Shown here: one piece after another, positions 5,428 through 19,763 of the stretch
Position numbering within the stretch: the stretch's first letter is position 1
Layout of the letters: every line of letters starts with the position of its first letter
Source: Candidatus Bathyarchaeota archaeon
Lineage (GTDB): Archaea > Thermoproteota > Bathyarchaeia > TCS64
Assembly: GCA_043826455.1 (NCBI GenBank)
Contig: JBDRQD010000015.1
Coordinates: forward strand, 233,353-297,352
Direction of reading: 5' to 3'
Length of the DNA: 64,000 nucleotides
Translations under genes and position numbers: made by a program
The notes under the pieces: model-generated
What the model saw: the letters and a program-made list of their open reading frames with translations, nothing else
Told to the model about the DNA's origin: nothing
The model's database searches: none

Positions 5428-5765
5428 GCATTCGCAGGATGGAGCTCTTCGTGTCCAGGCTACTCCGCCTCGGCGTCCTCTTGTGCGGAGTCACCATGGC
5501 CCTGGGCCTAGGCCTGCTCTGGTGGTCGGGAGACACCAGCAGCCCCTTCGGCGTCCTGTCCGTTGACTGGGTTCTGCTGGGTGACCCGTTCCTTCAGCCA
5601 AGCCACGTGCTGTTCCTGGGGTTCCTTATCCTGGTGGCGACGCCGGTAATGAGGGTCGCCGCCAGCGTCGCCAACTACGTCTCTGAGGGGGACTGGGTCT
5701 ACGCGGCCATCACGGGGACAGTGCTCGTCATTCTGGTGGCGGGCATGTTCCTGGGTCTAGGATGA
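5424..5765 (+). CDS. DUF1634 family membrane protein (usual TauE partner)
   Basis: LLRLGV...LILVATPVMRVAAS...D..YAAIT; ATGA overlap with tauE. Confidence 0.85.
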   Translation: MSIRRMELFVSRLLRLGVLLCGVTMALGLGLLWWSGDTSSPFGVLSVDWVLLGDPFLQPSHVLFLGFLILVATPVMRVAASVANYVSEGDWVYAAITGTVLVILVAGMFLGLG

Positions 5766-5829
5766 CCGGCTGACAGAGCCAGAACATCTCCTAGTAAAGA
5801 AAGGATGCGTGTAGAAGGTACCTGAAGTG

Positions 5830-6075
5830 TCAGAAGGCTGGAGCCATCCCAATGCCTGGCACGGCCAGAGCATAGCTCTGGGTGGCCGCCTCGTAGATGA
5901 CTGCTCCCTGGGCAACGAGCTCACTGAGGGCCGCCCTTATCTGCCTCCTGGTGAGTGTGACGTGGAACTGGAGGTCCTCGACCCTGGCCCTGCCCTCCTC
6001 AAGGATGAGGGCGAGGGTTACCTTGTCGGAGTTGGTGATCCTGCGGATGTGCTCCATACGATATCGCTGCGACAT
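5830..6075 (-). CDS. Small winged-helix DNA-binding protein
   Basis: HTH/wing pattern VEDLQFHVTLTRRQIRAALSELVAQGAV. Confidence 0.6.
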   Translation of the reverse strand: MSQRYRMEHIRRITNSDKVTLALILEEGRARVEDLQFHVTLTRRQIRAALSELVAQGAVIYEAATQSYALAVPGIGMAPAF

Positions 6076-6185
6076 TGTCTCGCACCTTCAATATAACCTT
6101 AACGCTTTCTGTCGAACCTATGTTCTACGATTGACGAAGTCAGGCTGGTAAACGGTAAAAGCCCCCGGGGCACCTATACCCTGGC

Positions 6186-6650
6186 ATGAGCGAGTACGAG
6201 GCGAAGCTGAAGACCTACATCAGGGAACACGGAATAGACGCCCGGCACCTATCCTTCAACCAGTCCACACACTCAGTTGAGGATGCGTCCAGGGCCGTAG
6301 GCGCAGAGCCGCAGGGCTTCGTCAAGAGCATCTGCATGATCGCCGGGGACGGCGACCTCGTGGTGGCCATCGTGAAGGGGGAGGACCGCGCCAGCACCAG
6401 CAGGGTCTCCAAGGCCCTGGGCGTCGAGGGTGTCAGGGTCGCCAGGCCCGAGGAGATACTGGAGAAGACCGGTTACCCCGTGGGCGGGACCCCCGCCTTC
6501 GGGTATCCGGCCACCTTCCTCATGGACCCCAGGGTCATGGAGTGGAGCCACGTCTACTCTGGGGGAGGCTCCGACACCGCCCTCACGTACATGTCTACTG
6601 GGGAGATGCTGAGAGCCAACGACGGCAAAGTGGTGAGGGTGAGAAAGTAG
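6186..6650 (+). CDS. YbaK/EbsC/ProX aminoacyl-tRNA deacylase family
   Basis: FVKSI conserved Lys; TGYPVGGTPAFG GxxxP loop. Confidence 0.92.
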   Translation: MSEYEAKLKTYIREHGIDARHLSFNQSTHSVEDASRAVGAEPQGFVKSICMIAGDGDLVVAIVKGEDRASTSRVSKALGVEGVRVARPEEILEKTGYPVGGTPAFGYPATFLMDPRVMEWSHVYSGGGSDTALTYMSTGEMLRANDGKVVRVRK

Positions 6651-6665
6651 ACGCCCCGGTCTACC

Positions 6666-7355
6666 TCACTTTTCGTGACTCAAGTTTGACTCTATTTTTC
6701 TGATTCTTGACTCGATGAACTCAACGTAGTATTCATGACCCTTGTCCGGCTTCCTGTTCTTCACATATGACTCATAGATATCTGTGGCTTGCTTATCGTC
6801 CACAGCCTTCAAAGCATCCAGAACGGCTTGTTTGCTGATGCCCTCTGCGCCACTGATCAACGCCATGAGGCGGCACACCTCCCCCGCCACGACGGGTGCC
6901 ATGTCTGGCCTATCCTTGATCAGTTCATCTAACTTGGAGAGGCGCTCCGTCCTCCATCTTATGAGGGCATCCATGTCGTAGCGGGGTAAAAGGTGGGCTA
7001 CCTCCTCTCCGTAGACCACTTCGTGGTTCTCCAGGAAGTCGTGCAGGTATATGGTCAGGAACTTGAAGCCGTAGCCCATGTTCAATGGGTCCCGGAGGTT
7101 CTCCAGCCGCTCCCAGGGCAGGTCGAGGAGCTTGTGCCCGACGCCCTCGACGCAGCCTCCGATGATTTCATGCAGGCGGACCATGTCGGGGGCCTCGTCC
7201 CCTACTATCACCAGGATGTCCAGGTCGCTGAGCCCTGGGACGAAGTCTCCCCTGATGTAGGAGCCGAAGAGCACGAGGGAGTGTATCTTGGACAACTCCG
7301 GATCAACAGTGATCCTCCTCCTGATACATTCCTTGAACGACACGCCGGTCACCAA
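6666..7355 (-). CDS. Pol-beta superfamily nucleotidyltransferase with C-terminal helical domain
   Basis: LVLFGSYIRGDFVPGLSDLDILVIV (hGS...DhD). Confidence 0.85.
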   Translation of the reverse strand: MVTGVSFKECIRRRITVDPELSKIHSLVLFGSYIRGDFVPGLSDLDILVIVGDEAPDMVRLHEIIGGCVEGVGHKLLDLPWERLENLRDPLNMGYGFKFLTIYLHDFLENHEVVYGEEVAHLLPRYDMDALIRWRTERLSKLDELIKDRPDMAPVVAGEVCRLMALISGAEGISKQAVLDALKAVDDKQATDIYESYVKNRKPDKGHEYYVEFIESRIRKIESNLSHEK

Positions 7356-7427: not shown

Positions 7428-7435
7428 AAAAAAAA
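7428..7435 (-). terminator. Putative oligo-U terminator of the four-gene membrane operon
   Basis: A8 on + (T8 on -) about 15 nt after the stop at 7450. Confidence 0.5.
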
Positions 7436-7449
7436 GTGGGTTTAAGTCT

Positions 7450-8127
7450 CTAGCGTCCACTGTACCACTTGATCTTCTTCGTGTAGTAACCGTAGCCTAG
7501 GCCTAGGATCACCAGCAGCAGCATGACGTAAGTGTAGATGGCGACTTCGGGCCTCAGCATGTCCACGAGCCGACCGATTACCAGTTCGAACCTGAAGCTG
7601 ACGGTCTGTCCGTAGGTTACGCCGAAGGCCGCCAGCAGGAATATACGCCCTGTATGGTTAACGTACTTGTAGGGTCCCTCTGTCTGTGCCGTGAAGATGA
7701 AGTAGGCGGCGGCCGTGACCGTCCCGATCACCATCACCAGGTTGTCGAGGCTGGTCAGCGGCAGTATGGTTGCGTTTATCTGCCCCAGGAAGTCCGCCAT
7801 GACGCTCGTCCTTATGGCCAGGCCGAGGCCCGCGCCGACCGTCACAGCTACAGGGTACCTTGACAGCCAGAGCCACTCCGTCTTGAGCCTGGAGAACAGC
7901 ATCACGCAGAGGAGTATGGCTGCTATGTACACGTAGTTGCCTTGGAATACAGTGTTGATGGCGTTGGTCCTGACGTAGTTCCAGTTGGTGGCGAAGATGA
8001 AGCCACCCAGGATGCCCATGTAGAGGTTCTCGGTGAACTTGCTCAGCGGGTTGTCGCCTATCAGCACAGAGTACGCGCCTATGGACACGAAGGAGCCTGC
8101 GATGAGTCCGAGTAAGAAGCTGTCCAT
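7450..8127 (-). CDS. Uncharacterised polytopic membrane protein (operon gene 4)
   Basis: About 7 hydrophobic segments; DNPLSKFTENLYMG, GRIFLLAAFGVTYG; TAATG overlap with the upstream gene. Confidence 0.85.
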   Translation of the reverse strand: MDSFLLGLIAGSFVSIGAYSVLIGDNPLSKFTENLYMGILGGFIFATNWNYVRTNAINTVFQGNYVYIAAILLCVMLFSRLKTEWLWLSRYPVAVTVGAGLGLAIRTSVMADFLGQINATILPLTSLDNLVMVIGTVTAAAYFIFTAQTEGPYKYVNHTGRIFLLAAFGVTYGQTVSFRFELVIGRLVDMLRPEVAIYTYVMLLLVILGLGYGYYTKKIKWYSGR

Positions 8128-8969
8128 TACTTAGCCCCCTCCTCCTTTCTCGCTATGAAGTACAGTACGTTGCCTAGGACCACCAGGAACGCCCAGAGTA
8201 GTCCTCCGAAGTTTGTAGCCATGGCCTGCCCCAGAGCGAGACCAGGCATGCCCATCAGGTACTCGTACTCGGCTGAGCCTCTGACCCCACCGATGATGCC
8301 AACCATCTGGCCCGAGTTGATGTAGGGCGTGTAGTTGGGCACCTCGTTGGTGGTGCACATCCCGGTCATGGGAATGCCGAAGGGCGTGACTATCTGTCTT
8401 ACTCCGAAGGGTATGCTGCCCTCTGAGCCTCCCCACCAGAAGACCGCGGCGAAATCAGATGCCATGTTGATGTTCCTCATAAGAGGTATCTGGTCTATGG
8501 CTGTCCCGAAGTGATCCTCCGTCTTCACACTCCGTATGTCGTTTGCGAAGGCTGCTACGCCTGACTCTCCGCCCGGGACGTAGCCCATGTGGACCCAGTT
8601 CACGCCGTTCTCGGCTGCGACCCCGGAGGGAAGTTTTTCTAGTCCATTATTGATGGCTGTCACGGTCCACGCGGCCGTCTCCGTGCCTATGCTGAAGAAA
8701 ACTAGTTTGACGTCCTTCTTCAGCAGGTGCACGATCTGCACTTCCAGACCTGGGCCGCCCTGAGGGTAGGTGGCTGCTCCTAATCCGCCCTCTATGAGGA
8801 CGACGGAGCCTGCGGGTATGGCGTCGGCGAACTCGAAGGAATCCCGGGAGTACTGCTGAATATCCATGGGGAGTATAATCGGGTTAAGTATTGGGAAGGC
8901 CAGCGCGATGAACATCAACGCGAAGATGATCCTCTGGTCGAGCGCCAGCATCTTATCCATCAGACTCAT
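8127..8969 (-). CDS. Uncharacterised protein with N- and C-terminal TM helices around a soluble alpha/beta domain (operon gene 3)
   Basis: DQRIIFALMF TM, GVNWVHMGYVPGGE, PYINSGQMVGIIGGVRGSAEYE, C-terminal TM; ATGA overlap. Confidence 0.85.
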   Translation of the reverse strand: MSLMDKMLALDQRIIFALMFIALAFPILNPIILPMDIQQYSRDSFEFADAIPAGSVVLIEGGLGAATYPQGGPGLEVQIVHLLKKDVKLVFFSIGTETAAWTVTAINNGLEKLPSGVAAENGVNWVHMGYVPGGESGVAAFANDIRSVKTEDHFGTAIDQIPLMRNINMASDFAAVFWWGGSEGSIPFGVRQIVTPFGIPMTGMCTTNEVPNYTPYINSGQMVGIIGGVRGSAEYEYLMGMPGLALGQAMATNFGGLLWAFLVVLGNVLYFIARKEEGAK

Positions 8970-9619
8970 TCTGATTCCCTCCTCTCTTCCCTGATCCCAA
9001 GGTGCTCCTTCTGTCTACCCATGAACACCCTGACGCCCAGACCCATGATTCCTAGGCTTGTGCCTATGATCATCCCCCTGAACCCGGCTCCACTCGGGAT
9101 GTTCCTTATCCATGTACCTAATGGTAAGACGGGCGGGAACAGTATGGCGCCGATGGGTATGAGCATCAGAAGTATCACCAGGGCACACACGAGCAACACA
9201 GCCGAGTTCCAGTTCCTGGCTCTCAGGACCCTGTAGGCGGCGGACGTGATGTAGAAGGCGGTAAGCGAGTACAGGGCCGCTCCGATGGGCGACGTCATGT
9301 TGTTATAGATCCAAAGGAAAGTAGTGTCCCGTACATCGAGGACGCCTAGCCCCGCGGTTATGACGAAGGCCAGCACGTAGACGATGCTGTAGTACCACTC
9401 GCTTTTCCTTGTCCCTATCTTTTTACTGTGGTATATGGTGAGCACGATGGTGCCCAGGATCAGGGCTGCGGCCGAGATAATGGTCACGAAGGACCGGAGC
9501 GTCACGTTCAAGCTCGTCACGGGTGCGGGCATCGGGAAGAAGAACTCGATGATCATCAACAGCCCGATTATGGCGGTAAGTATTACCGGGATCTGCATTT
9601 TAACTAATCTTTCAGACAC
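8966..9619 (-). CDS. Uncharacterised polytopic membrane protein (operon gene 2)
   Basis: About 6 TM; YSLTAFYITSAAYRVLRARN, PSGAGFRGMIIG; SD GAGGTGA upstream of the GTG start. Confidence 0.85.
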   Translation of the reverse strand: MSERLVKMQIPVILTAIIGLLMIIEFFFPMPAPVTSLNVTLRSFVTIISAAALILGTIVLTIYHSKKIGTRKSEWYYSIVYVLAFVITAGLGVLDVRDTTFLWIYNNMTSPIGAALYSLTAFYITSAAYRVLRARNWNSAVLLVCALVILLMLIPIGAILFPPVLPLGTWIRNIPSGAGFRGMIIGTSLGIMGLGVRVFMGRQKEHLGIREERRESE

Positions 9620-9630
9620 TTCATCTCACC

Positions 9631-10410
9631 TCACATAGAAAACAGGCCCTTGATGCTCATCCCGAGGGTTATGAGGACGGAACCTAGAACAATCAGAATA
9701 GCCGCGATGAATTTGCCGATGTCCTGCCCTGCCAGCGACGAGGACACGGTCGGGTCCTCTGACACGTAGGCTCCGAGAGCGTACAGCTCCTCGCCTATGA
9801 GGCTGTAGTCGCAGATGGCCACCAGGAACGGGATGTTGTGGGTTGTGTCTGTCCCGCCGAGCATCATCGCCCCCACGCGGGCGGCGTTCTCCGTGAAGAT
9901 GACGGCCTTGTGGTACCAGCTTCCGAGAAAGAAGGCGCCTGCCATCTCGTCGCTCCACATGTGGTTGATGATGTACATTCTGTCTGCGCCGTCTGGGAGG
10001 TACATCACCGTCTCGTCCAGCTTCAGCTCATCATGCTTGTTCTCAGCCCTGTAGGCCTCATCCACGATCTCGCTTGCGATGGTGTAAGCCAGACCCTGGG
10101 TAACGGGGACGAAGAACTTTGAGCCCAAGTGAGCAGCTTTTCGAGCCGTGTAGGCCAGGATCTGGAAGGCGGCCACCGTTGGCGCCAGCACGCTGGGGTT
10201 ATCCATGGTCACGGTGTCCATTAGGTAGTAGGCGGGGCGCCCCATCTCCACGCACCTACCAAGGATCTCGTCGATGACATCGACAGCCTGCAGTCTCCTG
10301 AGTTTAGGTATTTTACCTGAGTATGCTCTTTGCATGTAGTAGATGATTGATCCTGCGATAACGACTAGGGTCAGAAGGCCGACGAGTCGGCCCTCAACAA
10401 TTAATACCAA
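9631..10410 (-). CDS. DUF6754-like protein (operon gene 1)
   Basis: LRRLQAVDVIDEILGRCVEMGRP and CDYSLIGEELYALGAYVS...SLAGQD motifs (family from recall); terminal TM helices. Confidence 0.8.
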   Translation of the reverse strand: MVLIVEGRLVGLLTLVVIAGSIIYYMQRAYSGKIPKLRRLQAVDVIDEILGRCVEMGRPAYYLMDTVTMDNPSVLAPTVAAFQILAYTARKAAHLGSKFFVPVTQGLAYTIASEIVDEAYRAENKHDELKLDETVMYLPDGADRMYIINHMWSDEMAGAFFLGSWYHKAVIFTENAARVGAMMLGGTDTTHNIPFLVAICDYSLIGEELYALGAYVSEDPTVSSSLAGQDIGKFIAAILIVLGSVLITLGMSIKGLFSM

Positions 10411-10594
10411 TTGTTTTCCCCAAAATCAACGTGTTCATATTTACTATAAATATTTAATCACTGTTTTCTGTATTTTTAAAGAAATATGTAAAAACATTTG
10501 AGGGCTTCATGATAATATTTATTTTTTCTAAATAAACGGCGTATTTTATGAATAGCGTTAAATATTTTGGAAAAATAGTTTTTCTGATACTAAA

Positions 10595-13156
10595 TTGACG
10601 AAGAAAATTACTTCACCTGAAGAGTTCTTCGGCCATCAACTGGGGGCTGACGGGAAGATCGTCCGGTGGGACAAGATAGTCGAGTACTTCACGAGGCTCC
10701 AGAAGGAGTCCAAGCGGATCAAGATCATGGACATGGGGCCCTCAACCGAGGGCCACCCCTTCCTCATGGTGCTCATCACCAGCGAGGCTAACATGAAGGA
10801 CCTGGACAAGCTCCAGGACATCAACATCACCCTCACCAACCCTGGTGAGCTAACAGAGGAAGATGCCAGGCCCCTGGTGGAGGCCGGCAAGGCCGTGGTC
10901 ATCCAGAGCATGAGCCTCCACGCCACGGAGATCGGGGGCACCCAGATGGCCCCCGAGTTGGCCTACGAGCTCATCACCGGAGAGGACGAGGAGACCCGCC
11001 GCATCAGGGACAACGTGATCAGTGTCATGGTGCCGTGCTTCAACCCCGACGGCCAGGTCATGGTCACCGACTGGTACAACAAATACCTGGGCACAGAGTA
11101 CGAGGGGACGAGCCCGCCCTACCTGTACCACAAGTACACGGGCCACGATAACAACAGGGACGCCTTCGCCACCAACATCGTGGAGTCTCAGTACATGGCC
11201 CGGCTCATGTTCCACGACTGGCCACCTCAGGCTTACCAGGACCACCACCACATGGGCAGCTACGGCGCCCGCCTCTACGTCGCACCATATTCTGATCCAA
11301 TCCACCCCCACGGCGACCCCCTGGTCTGGCGTGAGCTGGCGTGGTATGGGGCCCACATGGCCTACAAGCTGGAGCAGGCGGGTAAGAGCGGCATCGTAAA
11401 CGCAGCCATATTCAGCGGCTGGGCCCACCTGGGCTTCCACTGGATAGGCATCTACCACAACATACCAAGCATGCTCACCGAGTCGGCGTCAGCCAAGCTG
11501 GCCACACCCCTCTTCATCCACCCGGAGCAGCTGAAGGAGGAGACCAAGGCGGGCACCCTTGTGGGCACCAGGATGATGCCCCACTACAAACCCACCACCA
11601 ACTTCCCCAACCCTTGGCCCGGCGGCTGGTGGAGGCTCCGCGACATAGTGGAGCAGCAGAAAATAAGCGCCTGGGCCCTCCTGGACCACATGGCCCGCAA
11701 CAAGGAGACAGTGCTATGGAACGCGTACCAGAAGGCCGTGAGGCAGACCCAGCGGGGCGCCGAGGACCTGGTCACCGCCTACGTGATCCCGGCCTCCCAG
11801 CACGACACCCGCACCATGGAGCTCATGGTGGAGAAGCTCATGGCCCAGAACCTGGAGATGTACAGGGCCAAGAACCCCTTCACAGGGGATGGAGCCGTCT
11901 ACGAGGAGGGCAGCTACGTGATCCCCCTGGCCCAGCCCAAGATGGGGCTGGTGAAGACGCTGCTGAGCCGCACAAGGTTCCCCGACGACAGCTTCACCCG
12001 GATGCCCGACGGCAGCCCCCACCGCCCCTACGACACGGCCACAGACACCATGGCCGAGTTCATGGGCGTGGACGTCTACCCGGTGGGCTACATAACGGAT
12101 GTGGAGTTGGAGCTCCTCCAGGACTACAAGCAACCGGTGGGCGCTGTGGACGAGTCCAGCAAGGTGGGGTACCTCCTGGACACCCGGGAGAACCACGCCT
12201 TCAAGGCCATCAACATGCTCCTGGCTGAGGGAGTCCCTGTGAAACGGGTCACGGAGCCCCTAATGGCAGGGGACTTCGAGCTGCCCTCGGGCTGCTTCAT
12301 AGTGGAGCCAGGCCACGAGGAGAAGCTCACTCGCGCTGCCGAGGCGAACGGTGTCAGCTTCCACGCATTGGCCGAGCTACGGGCCGAGACCAGGCCCGTG
12401 AAGCCCCAGCGGGTGGGCATGTACCAGCGTTACTGGGGTGGCAACATGGACGAGGGCTGGACCCGCCTCTGCCTGGAACAGTACCGCTTCAACTACGCGA
12501 TCCTCATGGACGAGGAAATCAAGAAGGGGGGCCTCAGGGACGGCTACGACGTCATCATCCTGCCCAGCGACCCCCCCGCCATTATCACGGGCGGCGACGA
12601 GCTGAAGAAGTGGTGGAAGGAGAACCGGCAGGGCTGGGAGCTACCCGAGTACCCCCCAGAGTACAGGAGCGGCCTGGGCGACGAGGGCAAGAAGGCGTTG
12701 AAGGAGTTCGTGGAGAAGGGTGGGACCCTGGTGTGCCTCGGAGACTCCAGCATGTACGCCGTGGAGGCCCTGGAGCTGAAGGTGGCCAACGTCCTGGAGA
12801 AGGTGCCCAGCAGGGATTTCCACTGCCCCGGCAGCACCATCCACATAGACGTTGACACTGAGCATCCGGTGGCCTACGGGATGCCGGAGGAGGCCCTGGC
12901 CCTGTTCTGGAACAGCCCTGCCTTCAAGATAATCCCCAGCCCGGATAACCACAAGTACAGCGTCATAGCCAGCTACCCGGAGTCCGACCTCCTGGAGTCG
13001 GGGTGGCTCGTGGGCGAGGAGAGGCTAGCCAACAAGATCGCCGCGCTGCAGGCCGAGTCAGGGCTGGGCAGGGCGATCCTCATCGGTTTCAGGTGCCAGC
13101 ACAGGTGCCAGACCGGCGGCACCTTCAAGCTCCTCTTCAACAGCCTCCTGGACTGA
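10595..13156 (+). CDS. M14 family zinc carboxypeptidase with C-terminal class I GATase-like domain; no signal peptide
   Basis: LHATE (HxxE), FNPDG, GHDNNRD, DHHHMG; C-terminal YDVIILP...FVEKGGTLVCLG. Confidence 0.9.
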   Translation: MTKKITSPEEFFGHQLGADGKIVRWDKIVEYFTRLQKESKRIKIMDMGPSTEGHPFLMVLITSEANMKDLDKLQDINITLTNPGELTEEDARPLVEAGKAVVIQSMSLHATEIGGTQMAPELAYELITGEDEETRRIRDNVISVMVPCFNPDGQVMVTDWYNKYLGTEYEGTSPPYLYHKYTGHDNNRDAFATNIVESQYMARLMFHDWPPQAYQDHHHMGSYGARLYVAPYSDPIHPHGDPLVWRELAWYGAHMAYKLEQAGKSGIVNAAIFSGWAHLGFHWIGIYHNIPSMLTESASAKLATPLFIHPEQLKEETKAGTLVGTRMMPHYKPTTNFPNPWPGGWWRLRDIVEQQKISAWALLDHMARNKETVLWNAYQKAVRQTQRGAEDLVTAYVIPASQHDTRTMELMVEKLMAQNLEMYRAKNPFTGDGAVYEEGSYVIPLAQPKMGLVKTLLSRTRFPDDSFTRMPDGSPHRPYDTATDTMAEFMGVDVYPVGYITDVELELLQDYKQPVGAVDESSKVGYLLDTRENHAFKAINMLLAEGVPVKRVTEPLMAGDFELPSGCFIVEPGHEEKLTRAAEANGVSFHALAELRAETRPVKPQRVGMYQRYWGGNMDEGWTRLCLEQYRFNYAILMDEEIKKGGLRDGYDVIILPSDPPAIITGGDELKKWWKENRQGWELPEYPPEYRSGLGDEGKKALKEFVEKGGTLVCLGDSSMYAVEALELKVANVLEKVPSRDFHCPGSTIHIDVDTEHPVAYGMPEEALALFWNSPAFKIIPSPDNHKYSVIASYPESDLLESGWLVGEERLANKIAALQAESGLGRAILIGFRCQHRCQTGGTFKLLFNSLLD

Positions 13157-14347
13157 AACATCTCTCATTATTTTTCTCTCCAAAACGGAGCTCCAGACGC
13201 TGGACAGCGCCACGGTCAGGATAATGATGATGAGGATCAGGTCCGGCATCATGTAGGCGTACTGGACCCCTGACGAAATAGCCAGCTGAGCCATTACTGC
13301 AGCCGCTATCCCCCTGGGCATCATGGCCACCAAAACGTTTCTCTGCCCCTTCAGTTCCGCGTCACCGATGCTTGTGAGGACCACTGAGATGAATCTGCCA
13401 GCTATCAGAAGCACCGTGATCAACGCACCGTATATGATGATGCTGTAGTTCTCTATGAACAGAATGAGGCCCAGGTACACGAAGAAGTAGGTTCGGATGA
13501 AGAAGCTCATCTGGCTCATGAACTTCCTCATCATGCTGCCGACCTCCACGCTTTCCTGCATCCGCAGCATCCCACCTATCTCCACGCTGTTACCTAGAAC
13601 CAGCCCGAAGACCAGGGAGAAGATGGCGCCGTTCCCGCCCACGATCTCAGTCAAACCGTAGAAGAGTATGGCCACGCTCAAGGTCAGTATGTCGTCGTAG
13701 ACGTTGTCCCTCAGCTTGCCCAGTATCTTGAGCCACAGGACCCCCAGCACCAGCCCGAAGACGACTCCTATGGAGAGGGTGCTGGTGATGCTCTGGGCCA
13801 TCTCGTTCAGGTTCATGACCCTGGTGTTGCTGAGGATGTCTAGGAACATGACACTCACCACGATGACGAGGGCGTCCGTGAACACAGACTCGAGGCTCAG
13901 CAGCGTCACGATCCTGTCAGACACGTTCAGCTTCCTCACCAGGCTGATGACTATGCTTGAGCTCGTGCCCCCGATCATGGCCCCAAGCATGAGCCCGTAG
14001 ATGAGGTCCCACCCCAGGAAGGTCCCCGTGAACAGAGCCGTCAGTACCATGCTGACTACCACGTTGAGGGCCCCGAGAACCATGGCCTTGGGGCTCTCCC
14101 CGAGAACCTTGAAGAGGTTCAGGTTCATGCCACCGTCGAGGAGTATTATAAGCAGCGCGAGGCTGCTGAAGATGGGGGCTATCCCAGCGAAGCTGGACGG
14201 CTCCACCAGGTGAAAAACTGGGCCAAGGAGAAGCCCGAAGAAGATGAGGATGAGGTTGTCCGGGATGCCTTTCCGTTTGAAAAGGTAGTTACCGATAAAG
14301 CCCAGGCTGATTATGACGCCTGTGAGAATGAAGACGAAGTAGCTCAA
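13058..14347 (-). CDS. CPA1/NhaP-type cation:proton antiporter
   Basis: IILLDGG, GTSSSIV, LSLESVFTD, MMPRGIAAAV; the last 99 nt overlap the M14 gene (true end may be about 13168). Confidence 0.92.
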   Translation of the reverse strand: MSYFVFILTGVIISLGFIGNYLFKRKGIPDNLILIFFGLLLGPVFHLVEPSSFAGIAPIFSSLALLIILLDGGMNLNLFKVLGESPKAMVLGALNVVVSMVLTALFTGTFLGWDLIYGLMLGAMIGGTSSSIVISLVRKLNVSDRIVTLLSLESVFTDALVIVVSVMFLDILSNTRVMNLNEMAQSITSTLSIGVVFGLVLGVLWLKILGKLRDNVYDDILTLSVAILFYGLTEIVGGNGAIFSLVFGLVLGNSVEIGGMLRMQESVEVGSMMRKFMSQMSFFIRTYFFVYLGLILFIENYSIIIYGALITVLLIAGRFISVVLTSIGDAELKGQRNVLVAMMPRGIAAAVMAQLAISSGVQYAYMMPDLILIIIILTVALSSVWSSVLERKIMRDVSVQEAVEEELEGAAGLAPVLAPETDEDRPAQP

Positions 14348-14426: not shown

Positions 14427-14639
14427 TTACTCTGTTGCGTCCTGCTCCCGTTGAGCTTTCTGCTTCTTTACTCCCTTCAGCTTGTCGAGTTCGCCGGTGA
14501 TCTCTCGCCGAATGGCCACGATCTCCTGGCTCAGCTTCACAACTTTACCCGGGGTGGCCTTCTCCTTCGCTAGCATGGCCTCCTCCACCAGCTTCTCGCT
14601 AAGCTTCCGGTGCAGTTCATGAATTTTCTCAGCGCTCAT
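14427..14639 (-). CDS. Small basic helical/coiled-coil hypothetical protein
   Basis: MSAEKIHELHRKLSEKL...; SD GAGGT just upstream; follows the Zn-finger gene. Confidence 0.55.
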   Translation of the reverse strand: MSAEKIHELHRKLSEKLVEEAMLAKEKATPGKVVKLSQEIVAIRREITGELDKLKGVKKQKAQREQDATE

Positions 14640-14643
14640 AGTT

Positions 14644-14835
14644 TTACCTCGTGACATGTGTCTTGCTGGGCTTCGCCTCATCCATGGGGGGATTCTCCTC
14701 TTCGCCCGAGGTCAGGCAGTCTATGCACAGCTTGTCGGTGAAGCTGCCGCAGTACCTGCAGAACCTTTTACCGCAGACCTTGCAGGTGTAGAGCTTCCCG
14801 GTGCTCTGCCCACAGACCTCGCACTCCTCCAGCAT
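14644..14835 (-). CDS. Small multi-CxxC zinc-finger protein
   Basis: CEVC, CKVC, CRYC, CIDC within 63 aa; ATG at 14835 preceded by GGTGA. Confidence 0.75.
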   Translation of the reverse strand: MLEECEVCGQSTGKLYTCKVCGKRFCRYCGSFTDKLCIDCLTSGEEENPPMDEAKPSKTHVTR

Positions 14836-15073
14836 GAAAACATCACCATGGCGGGTTATTCCAGCATACATCGCAGCATGGACCCCTGACCATAACCTTA
14901 TCATTACGTCAGGGACTCAAAAAATGAGAAATTTATCTCATTTATTTAAATAAACAGTGCAACCTTTTTTTATTTAGTGCATTAGAAAAAATACACTAAA
15001 ATTATTAACGTTCATTTAAAAACGCTGACTATCTTCTTCAATATTTAATTTAAGCGTGAAAAAACGTGTGGGC

Positions 15074-15649
15074 TCACGTGACCCTGAACCTGCAGATAGT
15101 TGAGCCAGTCACAGCCGACTCCAGAAGCTCCACTTTCACGTGCCGCCCCAGCACCTGCTCCCAGTACCTCTCCACGAAGCCCATGCTGCAGTTGCAGTAG
15201 GTGACGGACATGATCTCGCCTGGGGGCAGCCCCTGTACGAGGCCGCAGTAGCACCGCACACCGTACGCGTCGGGGGTGTAACCGAAGATGATGGTGTTCC
15301 CGTCCCTCTCAACCAGCATTCCTCTAGGCGGGCTCCTAGCCTCAGCATTCAGGAAATCCTCCAGCTTCTCGTATCCGGAGCGGCGTTTGAGGGCGCTGGC
15401 CACGGGCCCCGTGTGGCTGTGGTCCGCGCAGTTGCGTCCGCAGCTGCTCATGATCCTCATGCGGGTCTCCAGGTCGAGCAGCCCGTCCATCCTCTCCATG
15501 GCGGCCTTCACCCATTGGGCCACATCCTCCTTCGGGCTGGAGTCCCTCAGGCTGTGTGAGTCCTTCATTATGGCCTCGGATGCCTCTTCTCCCGCCTCCC
15601 TCGCGATGGTTGACTTCAGCTCCCTCAGCGGGCCCCTGATGTTCGGCAT
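15074..15649 (-). CDS. Cys-rich V4R-like protein (DUF6144-like)
   Basis: CGRNC, RCYCGLV, TYCNCSMGF, VKVELLESAVTGSTICRFRV. Confidence 0.72.
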   Translation of the reverse strand: MPNIRGPLRELKSTIAREAGEEASEAIMKDSHSLRDSSPKEDVAQWVKAAMERMDGLLDLETRMRIMSSCGRNCADHSHTGPVASALKRRSGYEKLEDFLNAEARSPPRGMLVERDGNTIIFGYTPDAYGVRCYCGLVQGLPPGEIMSVTYCNCSMGFVERYWEQVLGRHVKVELLESAVTGSTICRFRVT

Positions 15650-17018: not shown

Positions 17019-18353
17019 TTGAGTGCGAACAATTTGGGGGAGCAACAGAACCGTAGCATGTTCTGGTTCATTCAGGGTAACGTCAAGGTCCTCATGTTCT
17101 GCAGGATCATATGGAGCTTCAGCACCAGCATCATCTACCCCTTTTTCAGCCTCTACATACTGGCATTAGGCGGCTCAAGCACAGAGATCGGGCTAATCAA
17201 CAGCCTCGGCCTCATCGCTGGAATGATCTTGTACCCAGTGGGTGGGTACATAGCGGACAGGGCCGGACGCGTCAAGCTCATCGGGTACAGCACCTTCCTC
17301 TACGCCTTCGCCCACCTCTTCTTCGTCATCGCTAACAACTGGCAGATGCTAGCCATTGGCCAGTTCTTCAGCCAGCTCCTCCTCTTCTACATGCCCGCCA
17401 TGAACGCCCTGGAGTCTGATAGCTTGCCCCCGGGTGTGAGAGGCAAGGGCTTCGCCATCATAATGGCTGTGCCCGGCGCGGTGAGGATCATAGCCCCTGT
17501 TGTGGGTGGCTTCATCATCGAGTGGTTTAAGGCCACTAGCAGTCTCAGCGACGACGCTGCCCTCGTCCAAGCAGTCAGGCTGTGCTGGGCCGTCGCCTTC
17601 GTCACAGGCCTCGTGGTCGCCTGGATAAGGCTCAGGTACCTGAAGGAGACCATCACAGAGGAGGATGGGGGCCGGAGGTTCAGCTTCAGGGAGATTCCGG
17701 GTATGATCGTCCCGGCCTACAGGAGCATCATGGACAGCGTCAGGTGGATGAACAGGAGCCTCCGCGTCATAGTGATCCTGGAGATGTTCGCCAGCTTCTT
17801 CATAGCCATGAGCGCCCCCTTCTACGTGGTCTACGCCAAGCAGATCATCGGCCTGGTGGAGAGCCAGTGGGGCCTGGTCATGTTCGTCAGCGGCCTCGTG
17901 GGCATCGTCCTGGCCTTCCCCCTGGGCAGCGCCACAGACAAGTATGGTGCTAGGAAGATGATTATGCTCGGTATGTTCCTATTGCCCGCCATGATCTTCA
18001 GCTTCCAGTACGCAGGCGGCTTCCTGGGAGTAGCAGCCATCCTGGTCGGCATACAGATATGCAACAACATGATGATCCCAGCCTTCAGCACCATCATCGC
18101 CAACATCATACCCAGAAGCCGCAGAGGCCGCCTCTACAGCCTCATCGGCGAGAGGGGGATATCCATCAACTTCGGCAACTTCTGGGGCGGCGGCTTCCTC
18201 CTATTCCCCCCCGCGGCTCTAGGAGCCTACATCGGCGGCTGGGTCTACAAGATGGACCCCAACATGCCATGGATAATCACTGGCGCCGCCATCCTCATAT
18301 GCGCCATCCTGGTCTATTTCTTCGTCCAGGAGCCCGATGAGGCTCAGCAGTAA
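17019..18353 (+). CDS. MFS transporter (tandem copy 1)
   Basis: GGYIADRAGR motif A; about 12 TM. Confidence 0.92.
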   Translation: MSANNLGEQQNRSMFWFIQGNVKVLMFCRIIWSFSTSIIYPFFSLYILALGGSSTEIGLINSLGLIAGMILYPVGGYIADRAGRVKLIGYSTFLYAFAHLFFVIANNWQMLAIGQFFSQLLLFYMPAMNALESDSLPPGVRGKGFAIIMAVPGAVRIIAPVVGGFIIEWFKATSSLSDDAALVQAVRLCWAVAFVTGLVVAWIRLRYLKETITEEDGGRRFSFREIPGMIVPAYRSIMDSVRWMNRSLRVIVILEMFASFFIAMSAPFYVVYAKQIIGLVESQWGLVMFVSGLVGIVLAFPLGSATDKYGARKMIMLGMFLLPAMIFSFQYAGGFLGVAAILVGIQICNNMMIPAFSTIIANIIPRSRRGRLYSLIGERGISINFGNFWGGGFLLFPPAALGAYIGGWVYKMDPNMPWIITGAAILICAILVYFFVQEPDEAQQ

Positions 18354-18440
18354 GCCCGCGTGAAGCGGCTTAACGTTTTCTTGGGGTAACATATATTACG
18401 GTCCATCCAACATTTTGCATGTTTTTAGGAGAAGCGGTTC

Positions 18441-19763
18441 ATGGAGGCACAGGAGCAGGGAAAACAGGGGATGTTCTGGTTCATCCGAGGCAACATAAGG
18501 ACGCTCATGATCTGCAGGGTGCTCTGGAGCCTGAGCACCAGCATAGTGTACCCCTACTTCAGCCTCTACATCCTCGCCTTAGGGGGAACCGAGGTGGAGG
18601 TGGGCCTGATAAGCAGCATCGGGATCATCGCCGGCATGTTCCTGTACCCTGTCGGTGGGTTCCTGGCCGACAAGGCGGGTCGCGTCAAGCTCATAGGATA
18701 CTCCACTGTCCTCTACGCCCTGGCCCACATACCCTTCGTCATCGCCAACGACTGGCAGGCCCTCGCCCTGGGGCAGTTCATGGCCCAGCTTCTCCTATTC
18801 TACACCCCCGCCATGAACGCCCTCAGCAGCGACAGCCTGCCCCCCGGCGTCAGGGGAAGGGGCTTCGCTATCATGATGGCAGTCCCCCAGGCCATCAGGA
18901 TAATCGCTCCCAGCGTGGGTGGCTGGCTCATAGGATACTTCCAGGAGACAAGCGGGCTCACTGAGGACGCGGCTCTCGTCCAGGCCGTGCGGCTTGCCTG
19001 GGGCATCGCTTTTGTGACGGGGCTGCTGGTGGCCTACCTGAGGCTCCGCTACCTGACGGAGACCATCGAGGAGGATAAGTCCACAAAATACAGCTGGAGG
19101 GACGCCTTCGCCGTCCTCAGGGAGTCCTACGCCAGCATATGGGAGTCGGTGAAGTGGATGGACCGCAGCCTCAGAACCATAGTGGTCATCGAGATGGTGG
19201 CCGCCTTCTTCGTCGCAATGAGCGGCCCCTTCTACGTGATCTTCGCCAAGACCTTCGCGGGCCTCTCGGCCCCCGATTGGGGCTACGTGAACCTTGTGAG
19301 CGGAGTAGTCGCCCTAATCTTCGCGCTGCCCATGGGCCAAGTGGTTGACTCGTGGGGGCCCAAGAGGGCCATACTTGTGGGCATGATGGCCGCACCCGCC
19401 ATAATATTCCTGTTCCAGTACAGCGACGGTTTCTGGGCTGTGGCCGCTGCCATGACCCTCATCAGCCTCTGCAACAAGATCATGATCCCGGGCTTCAGCA
19501 CCCTCATCGCCAACATGATCCCCCGGAGCCGCAGAGGCCGCCTATACAGTCTGCTGGGTGAGCGCGGCGTCCAGATAAGCTGGGGTAACTTCTGGGGCGG
19601 CGGCTTCCTCATCTTCCCGCCGGCTGCCCTCGGCGCCTGGGTGGGCGGCCATGTCTACGCCATAAGCCCAGCTCTTGTCTGGCAGATAACCAGCGTAGCC
19701 CTCCTGGCCGCTGCCCTCATGGTGCTGTTCTTTGTCCACGAGCCGGAGAAGGCCCAGGAGTAG
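18441..19763 (+). CDS. MFS transporter (tandem copy 2)
   Basis: GGFLADKAGR; collinear with copy 1 over its full length. Confidence 0.92.
   Translation: MEAQEQGKQGMFWFIRGNIRTLMICRVLWSLSTSIVYPYFSLYILALGGTEVEVGLISSIGIIAGMFLYPVGGFLADKAGRVKLIGYSTVLYALAHIPFVIANDWQALALGQFMAQLLLFYTPAMNALSSDSLPPGVRGRGFAIMMAVPQAIRIIAPSVGGWLIGYFQETSGLTEDAALVQAVRLAWGIAFVTGLLVAYLRLRYLTETIEEDKSTKYSWRDAFAVLRESYASIWESVKWMDRSLRTIVVIEMVAAFFVAMSGPFYVIFAKTFAGLSAPDWGYVNLVSGVVALIFALPMGQVVDSWGPKRAILVGMMAAPAIIFLFQYSDGFWAVAAAMTLISLCNKIMIPGFSTLIANMIPRSRRGRLYSLLGERGVQISWGNFWGGGFLIFPPAALGAWVGGHVYAISPALVWQITSVALLAAALMVLFFVHEPEKAQE

Follow-up and report, generated by a model that had tools for sequence, protein, structure and literature searches.

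A conserved four-subunit membrane module of Bathyarchaeia and a MutL-family protein with its partner as candidate parts of an importer with shared energisation

Introduction

What is the function of four adjoining membrane-protein genes, named here A, B, C and D, which lie in a 64,000-nucleotide stretch (the window) of contig JBDRQD010000015.1 of a Candidatus Bathyarchaeota archaeon? An earlier note, made from the letters of the window, had proposed a self-contained, ATP-independent four-subunit complex for uptake or sensing, probably of peptides or amino acids. Comparison of genomes revealed that the A-B-C-D module recurs in archaea and bacteria together with a separately encoded gene pair, E and F, of which E belongs to the MutL family. 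We give about even chances to the reading that the module is a multi-subunit importer served by E/F as a shared ATPase outside the ATP-binding cassette (ABC) type, organised by analogy like the group II energy-coupling factor (ECF) transporters. The module is real, undescribed and probably a new kind of membrane machine, of which the earlier note probably found the membrane half and missed the motor.

Results

A four-gene module conserved in archaea and bacteria

The four genes are co-oriented and encode proteins of 217 to 280 amino acids (aa):

10410 to 9631, minus strand: gene A, DUF6754 protein, 259 aa; start codon TTG; predicted helix, cytoplasmic alpha/beta domain, helix
9619 to 8966, minus strand: gene B, polytopic membrane protein, 217 aa; start codon GTG; N-terminus predicted inside; no family
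8969 to 8127, minus strand: gene C, 280 aa; predicted helix, extracytoplasmic alpha/beta domain, helix; candidate substrate-recognition subunit; no family
8127 to 7450, minus strand: gene D, polytopic membrane protein, 225 aa; N-terminus predicted outside; no family

Genes A and B are 11 nt apart, and the downstream genes are joined by ATGA and TAATG overlaps. Lengths, gap and overlaps, as well as the AT-rich region upstream and the T8 tract downstream, are exactly as the earlier note had given them.

That note had also suggested a search for co-occurrence and a common order of the four families, and both were found. Among the best 80 of 425 loci in GTDB, which stem from Bathyarchaeia, other archaea, Bacillota, records titled Ignavibacteria, WOR-3, Eisenbacteria and Muiribacterium, and others, the order A-B-C-D is present in 72, and the remaining 8 meet a contig end within 1604 nt of A. 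The unit occurs in archaea and in monoderm and diderm bacteria. When all gathered loci were considered, 235 of 285 A genes opened an A-B-C-D run, 45 were cut by ends and 5 differed. Eight complete copies with 23-35% identity are encoded in this genome, and a profile of C matches 4657 protein clusters at 50% identity; C had no match among 72,556 plasmids. Over 100 modules, the pairwise distances of any one subunit go along with those of the others (rho 0.51-0.68), as expected of any operon. A, B, C and D very probably form a complex.

Broken or partial modules (A-B only, truncated A, a lone D remnant) were observed at L117 and L219 of genome G069 and at L146 and L135 of G132; as these genomes also hold intact modules, the modules turn over. 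Two further genes recur beside modules and are absent from the copy in the window: G (about 130 aa, no family) in 21 of 87 loci of archaea and bacteria, and H (about 140 aa), a weakly DUF3792-like membrane protein, beside archaeal modules. Examples are L021:10853-11711, L022:6691-7573, L023:12463-13114 and L118:4096-4455. G and H are possibly accessory subunits.

Families, topology and conservation of the subunits

Gene A matches DUF6754, as the earlier note had proposed (PF20539, E-value 1.6e-56, 191.8 bits against a cut-off of 27, model positions 10-251 of 257), and its nearest Atlas clusters are DUF6754 proteins. B, C and D gave no Pfam match above cut-off and no NCBIfam match, and scans of single members (84 of B, 149 of C and 75 of D) revealed no consistent family. 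The commonest match in these scans was TMD0_ABC, in 18 of the 84 B proteins (best E-value 5e-5), and BPD_transp_1 appeared in just 4 of the 149 C proteins, with E-values of 0.003 or worse. Atlas searches returned solely hypothetical or DUF6754 clusters, and sequence searches of the PDB, run with both a shallow and a deep alignment for A, C, E and F, gave nothing significant. A likeness of C to glutamate racemase was rejected, since its three PDB matches (E-values 0.3-0.9) are at chance level. A homologue of C with 90% identity carries the label Candidatus Bathyarchaeia. A motif check of A-D detected no Walker A, LSGGQ, CxxC or CxxCH and no redox or cofactor motifs; together with the family scans it bears out the earlier statement that Walker A, Cys-cluster and transporter-family signatures are lacking.

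Hydropathy agrees with the earlier description of two polytopic proteins and two proteins with a soluble domain between transmembrane segments: A and C show two terminal helices each, B and D five clear helices each, to which a sixth, less hydrophobic one may be added. Orientation was predicted from positive-inside counts of Lys and Arg on the alignments. These counts are 4.7 after and 1.0 before helix 1 of A, predicting a cytoplasmic central domain, and 2.7 before helix 1 and 3.1 after helix 2 of C, predicting an outside central domain. Profile similarity between the A and C domains is weak (score 29.4, where 30 block shuffles gave no more than 23.3 and unrelated slices scored 12-19; probability 59%), and a comparison of B with D gave no signal (18.0 against 18.8 for shuffles).

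Conservation is concentrated in A: 35 of its columns are at least 88% conserved, compared with 9 in B, 9 in C and 11 in D. Across a subsample of 79 modules, identity is 47% for the inner domain of A and 32% for the outer domain of C. Among the paralogues of three genomes, the inner domain of A is always the best conserved part and the outer domain of C is among the least conserved. A is therefore the most conserved subunit of the family, yet it is divergent in the copy studied here.

Covariation, computed from 235 paired modules (effective number about 148), is weak overall. One helix ladder, of B residues 77/80/84 on D residues 27/31/35, scored 19.0, whereas 78 re-paired controls reached at most 17.4 in any subunit pair; this statistic was devised after the cluster had been seen. 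The best B-C pair (z 10.9) exceeds its own 78 controls, but controls of other pairs reach 12.7; A-B, A-C and C-D are at control level. This modest covariation suggests a B-D contact and is no proof of a four-chain complex.

The module is accompanied by a MutL-family protein and its companion

The E/F gene pair adjoins two of the eight module copies in this genome. E (611-627 aa here, 590-660 aa overall) matches PF13941 (MutL) with an E-value of 7e-117 and is labelled 'glutamate mutase L' in databases. F (381-391 aa) has no family; RnfC_N and biotin-lipoyl-like matches were each found in 13 of 19 members. The first phosphate motif of E, DxGSTTTK, is present in 30 of 31 locus copies if T/S variation is allowed, and the second reads DIGGATT in bacteria and GLGGATT in most archaea. 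We take DxGSTTTK and DIGGATT to be phosphate motifs of the actin-fold (ASKHA) type.

Both genes lie within 10 kb of the module in 19 of the 80 loci, always together. Among 111 genomes of the class, E and F occupy the identical 37 genomes; A was called at cut-off in 35 of the 37, whereas the 74 others gave no A. The remaining two hold diverged A genes, found by hand, one of which is part of a single run of E-F-A-B-C-D-G. Of 301 Bacillota genomes, 25 have A, 25 have F and 24 have both, F usually in fewer copies than the module. In the class of G131 all 71 genomes have A (2-6 matches) and 69 have F, mostly as a single match. Ratios of modules to E/F pairs are 8:3 in this genome, 15:3 in G086 and about 5:1 in the class of G131. 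Nominal P values of this co-occurrence were given no weight because related genomes are not independent. A functional link between module and E/F is nevertheless likely on these genome comparisons, and near-perfect co-occurrence with an actin-fold ATPase-like protein and its partner makes the earlier notion of a self-contained, ATP-independent complex doubtful.

MutL acts as a reactivase for B12-dependent mutases. Such a role was rejected for E: none of the 111 class genomes yielded PF06368 glutamate mutase (search without positive control) or PF09043 lysine/ornithine aminomutase (positive control found in G132), and in the complete genome G132 a short MutL lies beside ornithine aminomutase and five long E genes each lie beside F. 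A literature search on glutamate mutase MutL as a reactivating factor with ATP yielded nothing relevant. No paper on DUF6754 or TIGR01319 was found either; subscription papers and supplements, which may hold proteomic mentions, lay outside that search.

This genome contains a third, divergent E/F pair that adjoins no module (G000:C47:16824-19465; L114:8825-11457). The first phosphate motif of its E is altered, and its F (about 290 aa) has no C-terminal domain, a short type also seen in about 12 related genomes. A partnership of this pair with the divergent module in the window was rejected: G007 has an orthologue of the module and only one, canonical F, and G017, G010, G100 and G014 have the short F and no module orthologue. 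In Bacillota, with up to five E/F pairs per genome, longer F variants of 435-490 aa with a repeated barrel-sandwich segment lie each beside their own E (L111:9442-10794, L132-L134, G132).

Neighbouring genes and candidate substrate

The two nearest genes on each side of the module (near) were compared with genes at least five places away (far) at 37 chosen archaeal loci, near-duplicates being left out. Peptidases, amidohydrolases, aminotransferases or other pyridoxal phosphate (PLP) enzymes and amino-acid racemases made up 38 of 114 near and 8 of 94 far genes (Fisher P 2e-5), in categories set after the data had been seen and in a tally by hand that includes some orthologous loci and, as two entries, the halves of one gene. 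A catabolic neighbour of this kind, from several different families, stands beside all eight copies in this genome and in 8 of the 13 module regions of the complete Bacillota genome G132. The earlier note had thought a peptide or amino-acid substrate probable in view of the gene next to the module; the enrichment agrees with this, but the neighbour itself is no fixed partner. This M14 peptidase adjoins the module in only 2 of 11 orthologous loci (two of the 11 being cut short upstream) and was rejected as a dedicated partner; a paralogue of it adjoins another module copy in this genome. As the neighbour families vary as well, the substrate class is inferred.

Many genes beside modules belong to families such as Amidohydro_3 (about 540 aa), S58, M19, M81, Asp/Glu racemase and serine beta-lactamase-like proteins, at L023:510-2135 and 14469-15575, L045, L058:2224-2928, L060:12990-14711, L141 and L143. 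These families include enzymes of D-amino acids or cell-wall peptides, a hint that D-amino-acid peptides may be scavenged. At two archaeal loci (L037:8000-9893, L040:7855-9808) the module directly follows, on the same strand, a biotin-carrier gene and a gene of the pyruvate-carboxylase/oxaloacetate-decarboxylase type.

Selection, promoter and RNA cover of the copy in the window

Three further features flank the module:

10443 to 10451, minus strand: archaeal TATA-like box with TTTATA core, inside the AT-rich spacer 10411-10594
7429 to 7436, minus strand: T8 tract and candidate terminator of archaeal type; position 7436 is also the end of one RNA contig
10595 to 13156, plus strand: M14 zinc carboxypeptidase-like protein (853 aa), transcribed divergently; a neighbour rather than a fixed part

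The four genes of this copy are real and active. Of 31 further genomes of the genus, 11 hold orthologues of it. Values of dN/dS of about 0.06-0.16 for A, B and C against six orthologues indicate that it is under purifying selection. The spacer 5' of gene A (184 nt, 22.8% GC) carries the TATA-like TTTATA about 35 nt upstream, which is kept in the 12 aligned copies (this one and 11 orthologues), whereas the flanking spacer is not kept. Runs of A8/T8 are scarce in this genome (109 per 2.95 Mb). A scan for sigma-70 promoters and terminators, ill-suited to an archaeon, returned 0 promoters and 3 terminators against 2.2 expected.

In four metatranscriptomes, which come from four studies, the operon is covered by RNA contigs of mostly 90-99% likeness, with cover starting at 7436-7462 (two runs) and reaching 10382-10414. 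A single contig, 8521-10411, spans A, B and half of C, another spans 7550-8573, and contigs end at 10411-10414. They are no proof of one transcript; the runs were picked with this stretch, and RNA libraries may contain DNA. Cover is absent over 5462-7231 and 10418-10771, which ranks nothing, since the operon itself guided the choice of runs and these stem from relatives.

In its listed form (13058-14347), a Na+/H+ antiporter open reading frame shares about 100 nt with the end of the M14 peptidase gene, which is convergent to it. Two tandem paralogous genes of major facilitator superfamily (MFS) transporters (444 and 440 aa) lie at 17019-19763. In three orthologous loci (L123-L125) the module is immediately preceded by one of these two genes or by the dehydrogenase gene that follows them, so the block in between varies.

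Discussion

Proposed mechanism and points against it

In the mechanism we propose, A, B, C and D would be one membrane complex importing peptides, amino acids or amides. The solute would bind to the outer domain of C, which is variable, B and D would form its path, and the conserved cytoplasmic domain of A would be the dock for E/F, which, bound there, would convert the binding or hydrolysis of ATP into movement. One to few E/F pairs could be shared by many modules that differ in specificity, as one energiser is by the S-components of group II ECF transporters. We lean slightly towards E being an active ATPase on A, towards import and towards the substrate class named above. Only tentatively would we call A-B-C-D with E/F a new class of primary active transporter, in which an actin-fold ATPase replaces the ABC, P-type or AAA motor and one conserved energiser serves up to 15 interchangeable modules.

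Several observations weigh against this proposal. No E/F lies near the copy in the window, whose A retains 35 of 54 family-conserved columns (one paralogue retains 30), compared with a median of 51 in loci that were selected for likeness to another module copy; this copy may therefore couple differently. In many archaeal E proteins, including the two main ones of this genome, Gly replaces Asp in the second phosphate motif. The single-contig Bacillota genome G303 has A-B-C-D (L257:6514-9269), no F and short MutL proteins only; in its A the profile match does not begin before position 58 and the conserved N-terminal motif is missing, so that this module may be an uncoupled variant. Another Bacillota genome, G216, has F and an E that lacks about 130 internal residues, but no C. 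Conserved charged residues in the helices are few, in five of the six subunit pairs no ladder clearly exceeds the controls (A-D is borderline, 3 of 78), and the ladder statistic and neighbour categories were post hoc. Finally, the co-occurrence of module and E/F suits an enzyme or a regulator as well as an energiser.

Alternative explanations

The best-placed alternative, which we consider unlikely, is a self-contained ion-driven or facilitated transporter of two oppositely oriented halves (A-B and C-D), E/F being merely a regulator or downstream enzyme. The opposite predicted orientation and weak profile similarity of A and C, the G303 module and the 61 of 80 modules that do not adjoin E/F are consistent with it. 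Inverted-repeat secondary transporters have two homologous halves of opposite orientation. However, B and D are similar at shuffle level only, conservation is concentrated in the cytoplasmic domain of A and not in helices, and coupling to E/F at the genome level is near-perfect in two patchy groups.

Comparably unlikely, and second in order, is a membrane-bound enzyme or group-translocation machine in which E phosphorylates or activates an incoming amide using ATP and F is a mobile carrier arm. ASKHA kinases and hydantoinase/oxoprolinase-type ATPases use ATP to phosphorylate or activate their substrates. The actin-fold phosphate motifs of E, the two kinds of domain match in F, the amide hydrolases among the neighbours and the biotin-carrier and carboxylase-domain genes before the module at two loci would fit such a machine. 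A-D, however, have no redox or cofactor motifs, and up to 10-15 diverged modules, each with other enzymes beside it, go with one or two E/F pairs, a pattern that suits a generic energiser more than an enzyme specific for one substrate.

A receptor or signalling complex is improbable. C would sense an outside ligand and A relay it to E/F, which would control catabolic genes or enzymes; inside and outside alpha/beta domains linked through the membrane (as predicted), many paralogues per genome and long N-terminal extensions on some bacterial A (open frames of 400-540 aa) speak for it. On the other side, A-F contain no output domain (helix-turn-helix, kinase or cyclase), the recurring neighbours include no regulator family beyond a few loci, and two polytopic subunits exceed the need of a receptor.

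An export or envelope-biogenesis machine is very improbable. In its favour, all 71 genomes of one bacterial class have the module, most of them with a constant 4-6 matches; at one locus a gene for a secreted thermolysin-like protein separates F from A, and in one bacterial genome a Tol-Pal-like cluster, recognised by eye, lies directly beside F and E (L110:1030-5639). Against it speak the unit common to archaea, monoderm and diderm bacteria, the copy number of 1-15 and the cytoplasmic-type catabolic neighbours in archaea and Bacillota.

Comparison with known systems

Group II ECF transporters combine many scattered membrane units with few shared energising units, as described in PMC4245157. 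The likeness of the proposed importer to them is one of genomic logic only, with fitting copy ratios: ECF transporters have the ABC ATPases EcfA/A', EcfT and single S-components, whereas the module has four subunits and a candidate actin-fold ATPase, and Pfam and NCBIfam gave no EcfA/A', EcfT or S-component match for module or E. ABC importers carry their own nucleotide-binding domain with Walker A and ABC signature, of which A-D have none and to whose families E and F show no match; their substrate-binding protein (SBP) and BPD_transp domains likewise have no consistent match among members of B, C and D. An outer soluble domain, polytopic partners and adjacent catabolic genes are shared with binding-protein ABC importers and with tripartite ATP-independent periplasmic (TRAP) and tripartite tricarboxylate (TTT) transporters. 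Unlike in these systems, there is no DctP/DctM, TctA/C or SBP match, C is anchored by two helices, and the inner domain of A is equally large. MFS proteins have 12 helices, whereas B and D have 5-6, and the best MFS-like score is 12.8 bits against a cut-off of 170.

F shares the RnfC_N-like barrel-sandwich hybrid domain of Rnf/Nqr; A-D have no matches to subunits of Rnf/Nqr, Mrp or Na+-pumping decarboxylases and no Fe-S, flavin or heme motifs. The profile searches thus placed the module in none of the characterised complexes (decarboxylase, Mrp/Rnf-type) that the earlier note had named as competing assignments. E shares PF13941 with GlmL/MutL/OraF (PF13941, TIGR01319), accessory proteins of B12-dependent glutamate mutase and ornithine aminomutase, but differs in its length of 590-660 aa, its pairing with F and the lack of a PF06368 or PF09043 mutase in the 111 genomes. 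The Pfam family DUF6754 (PF20539) covers just one of the four subunits and carries no function. As far as can be judged from sequence, the module is set apart from ECF, ABC, TRAP, MFS, Rnf/Nqr/Mrp and decarboxylase pumps.

Significance

A complete Bacillota genome with 13 module regions has been characterised by transporter-database searches, and the regions go unmentioned in the consulted passages of that report (PMC10215811). If the proposed importer is real, it would represent a new way to couple ATP to membrane transport and would explain thousands of mis-annotated genes. Hidden under the label 'glutamate mutase L', a main route by which Bathyarchaeia and many uncultured anaerobic bacteria take up peptides and amino-acid derivatives would come to light, and genome-based metabolic models of abundant sediment and digester microbes would miss a whole uptake system. 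Even if it is no transporter, A-F is a conserved six-protein machine, of which the soluble E and F and the domains of A and C allow direct testing.

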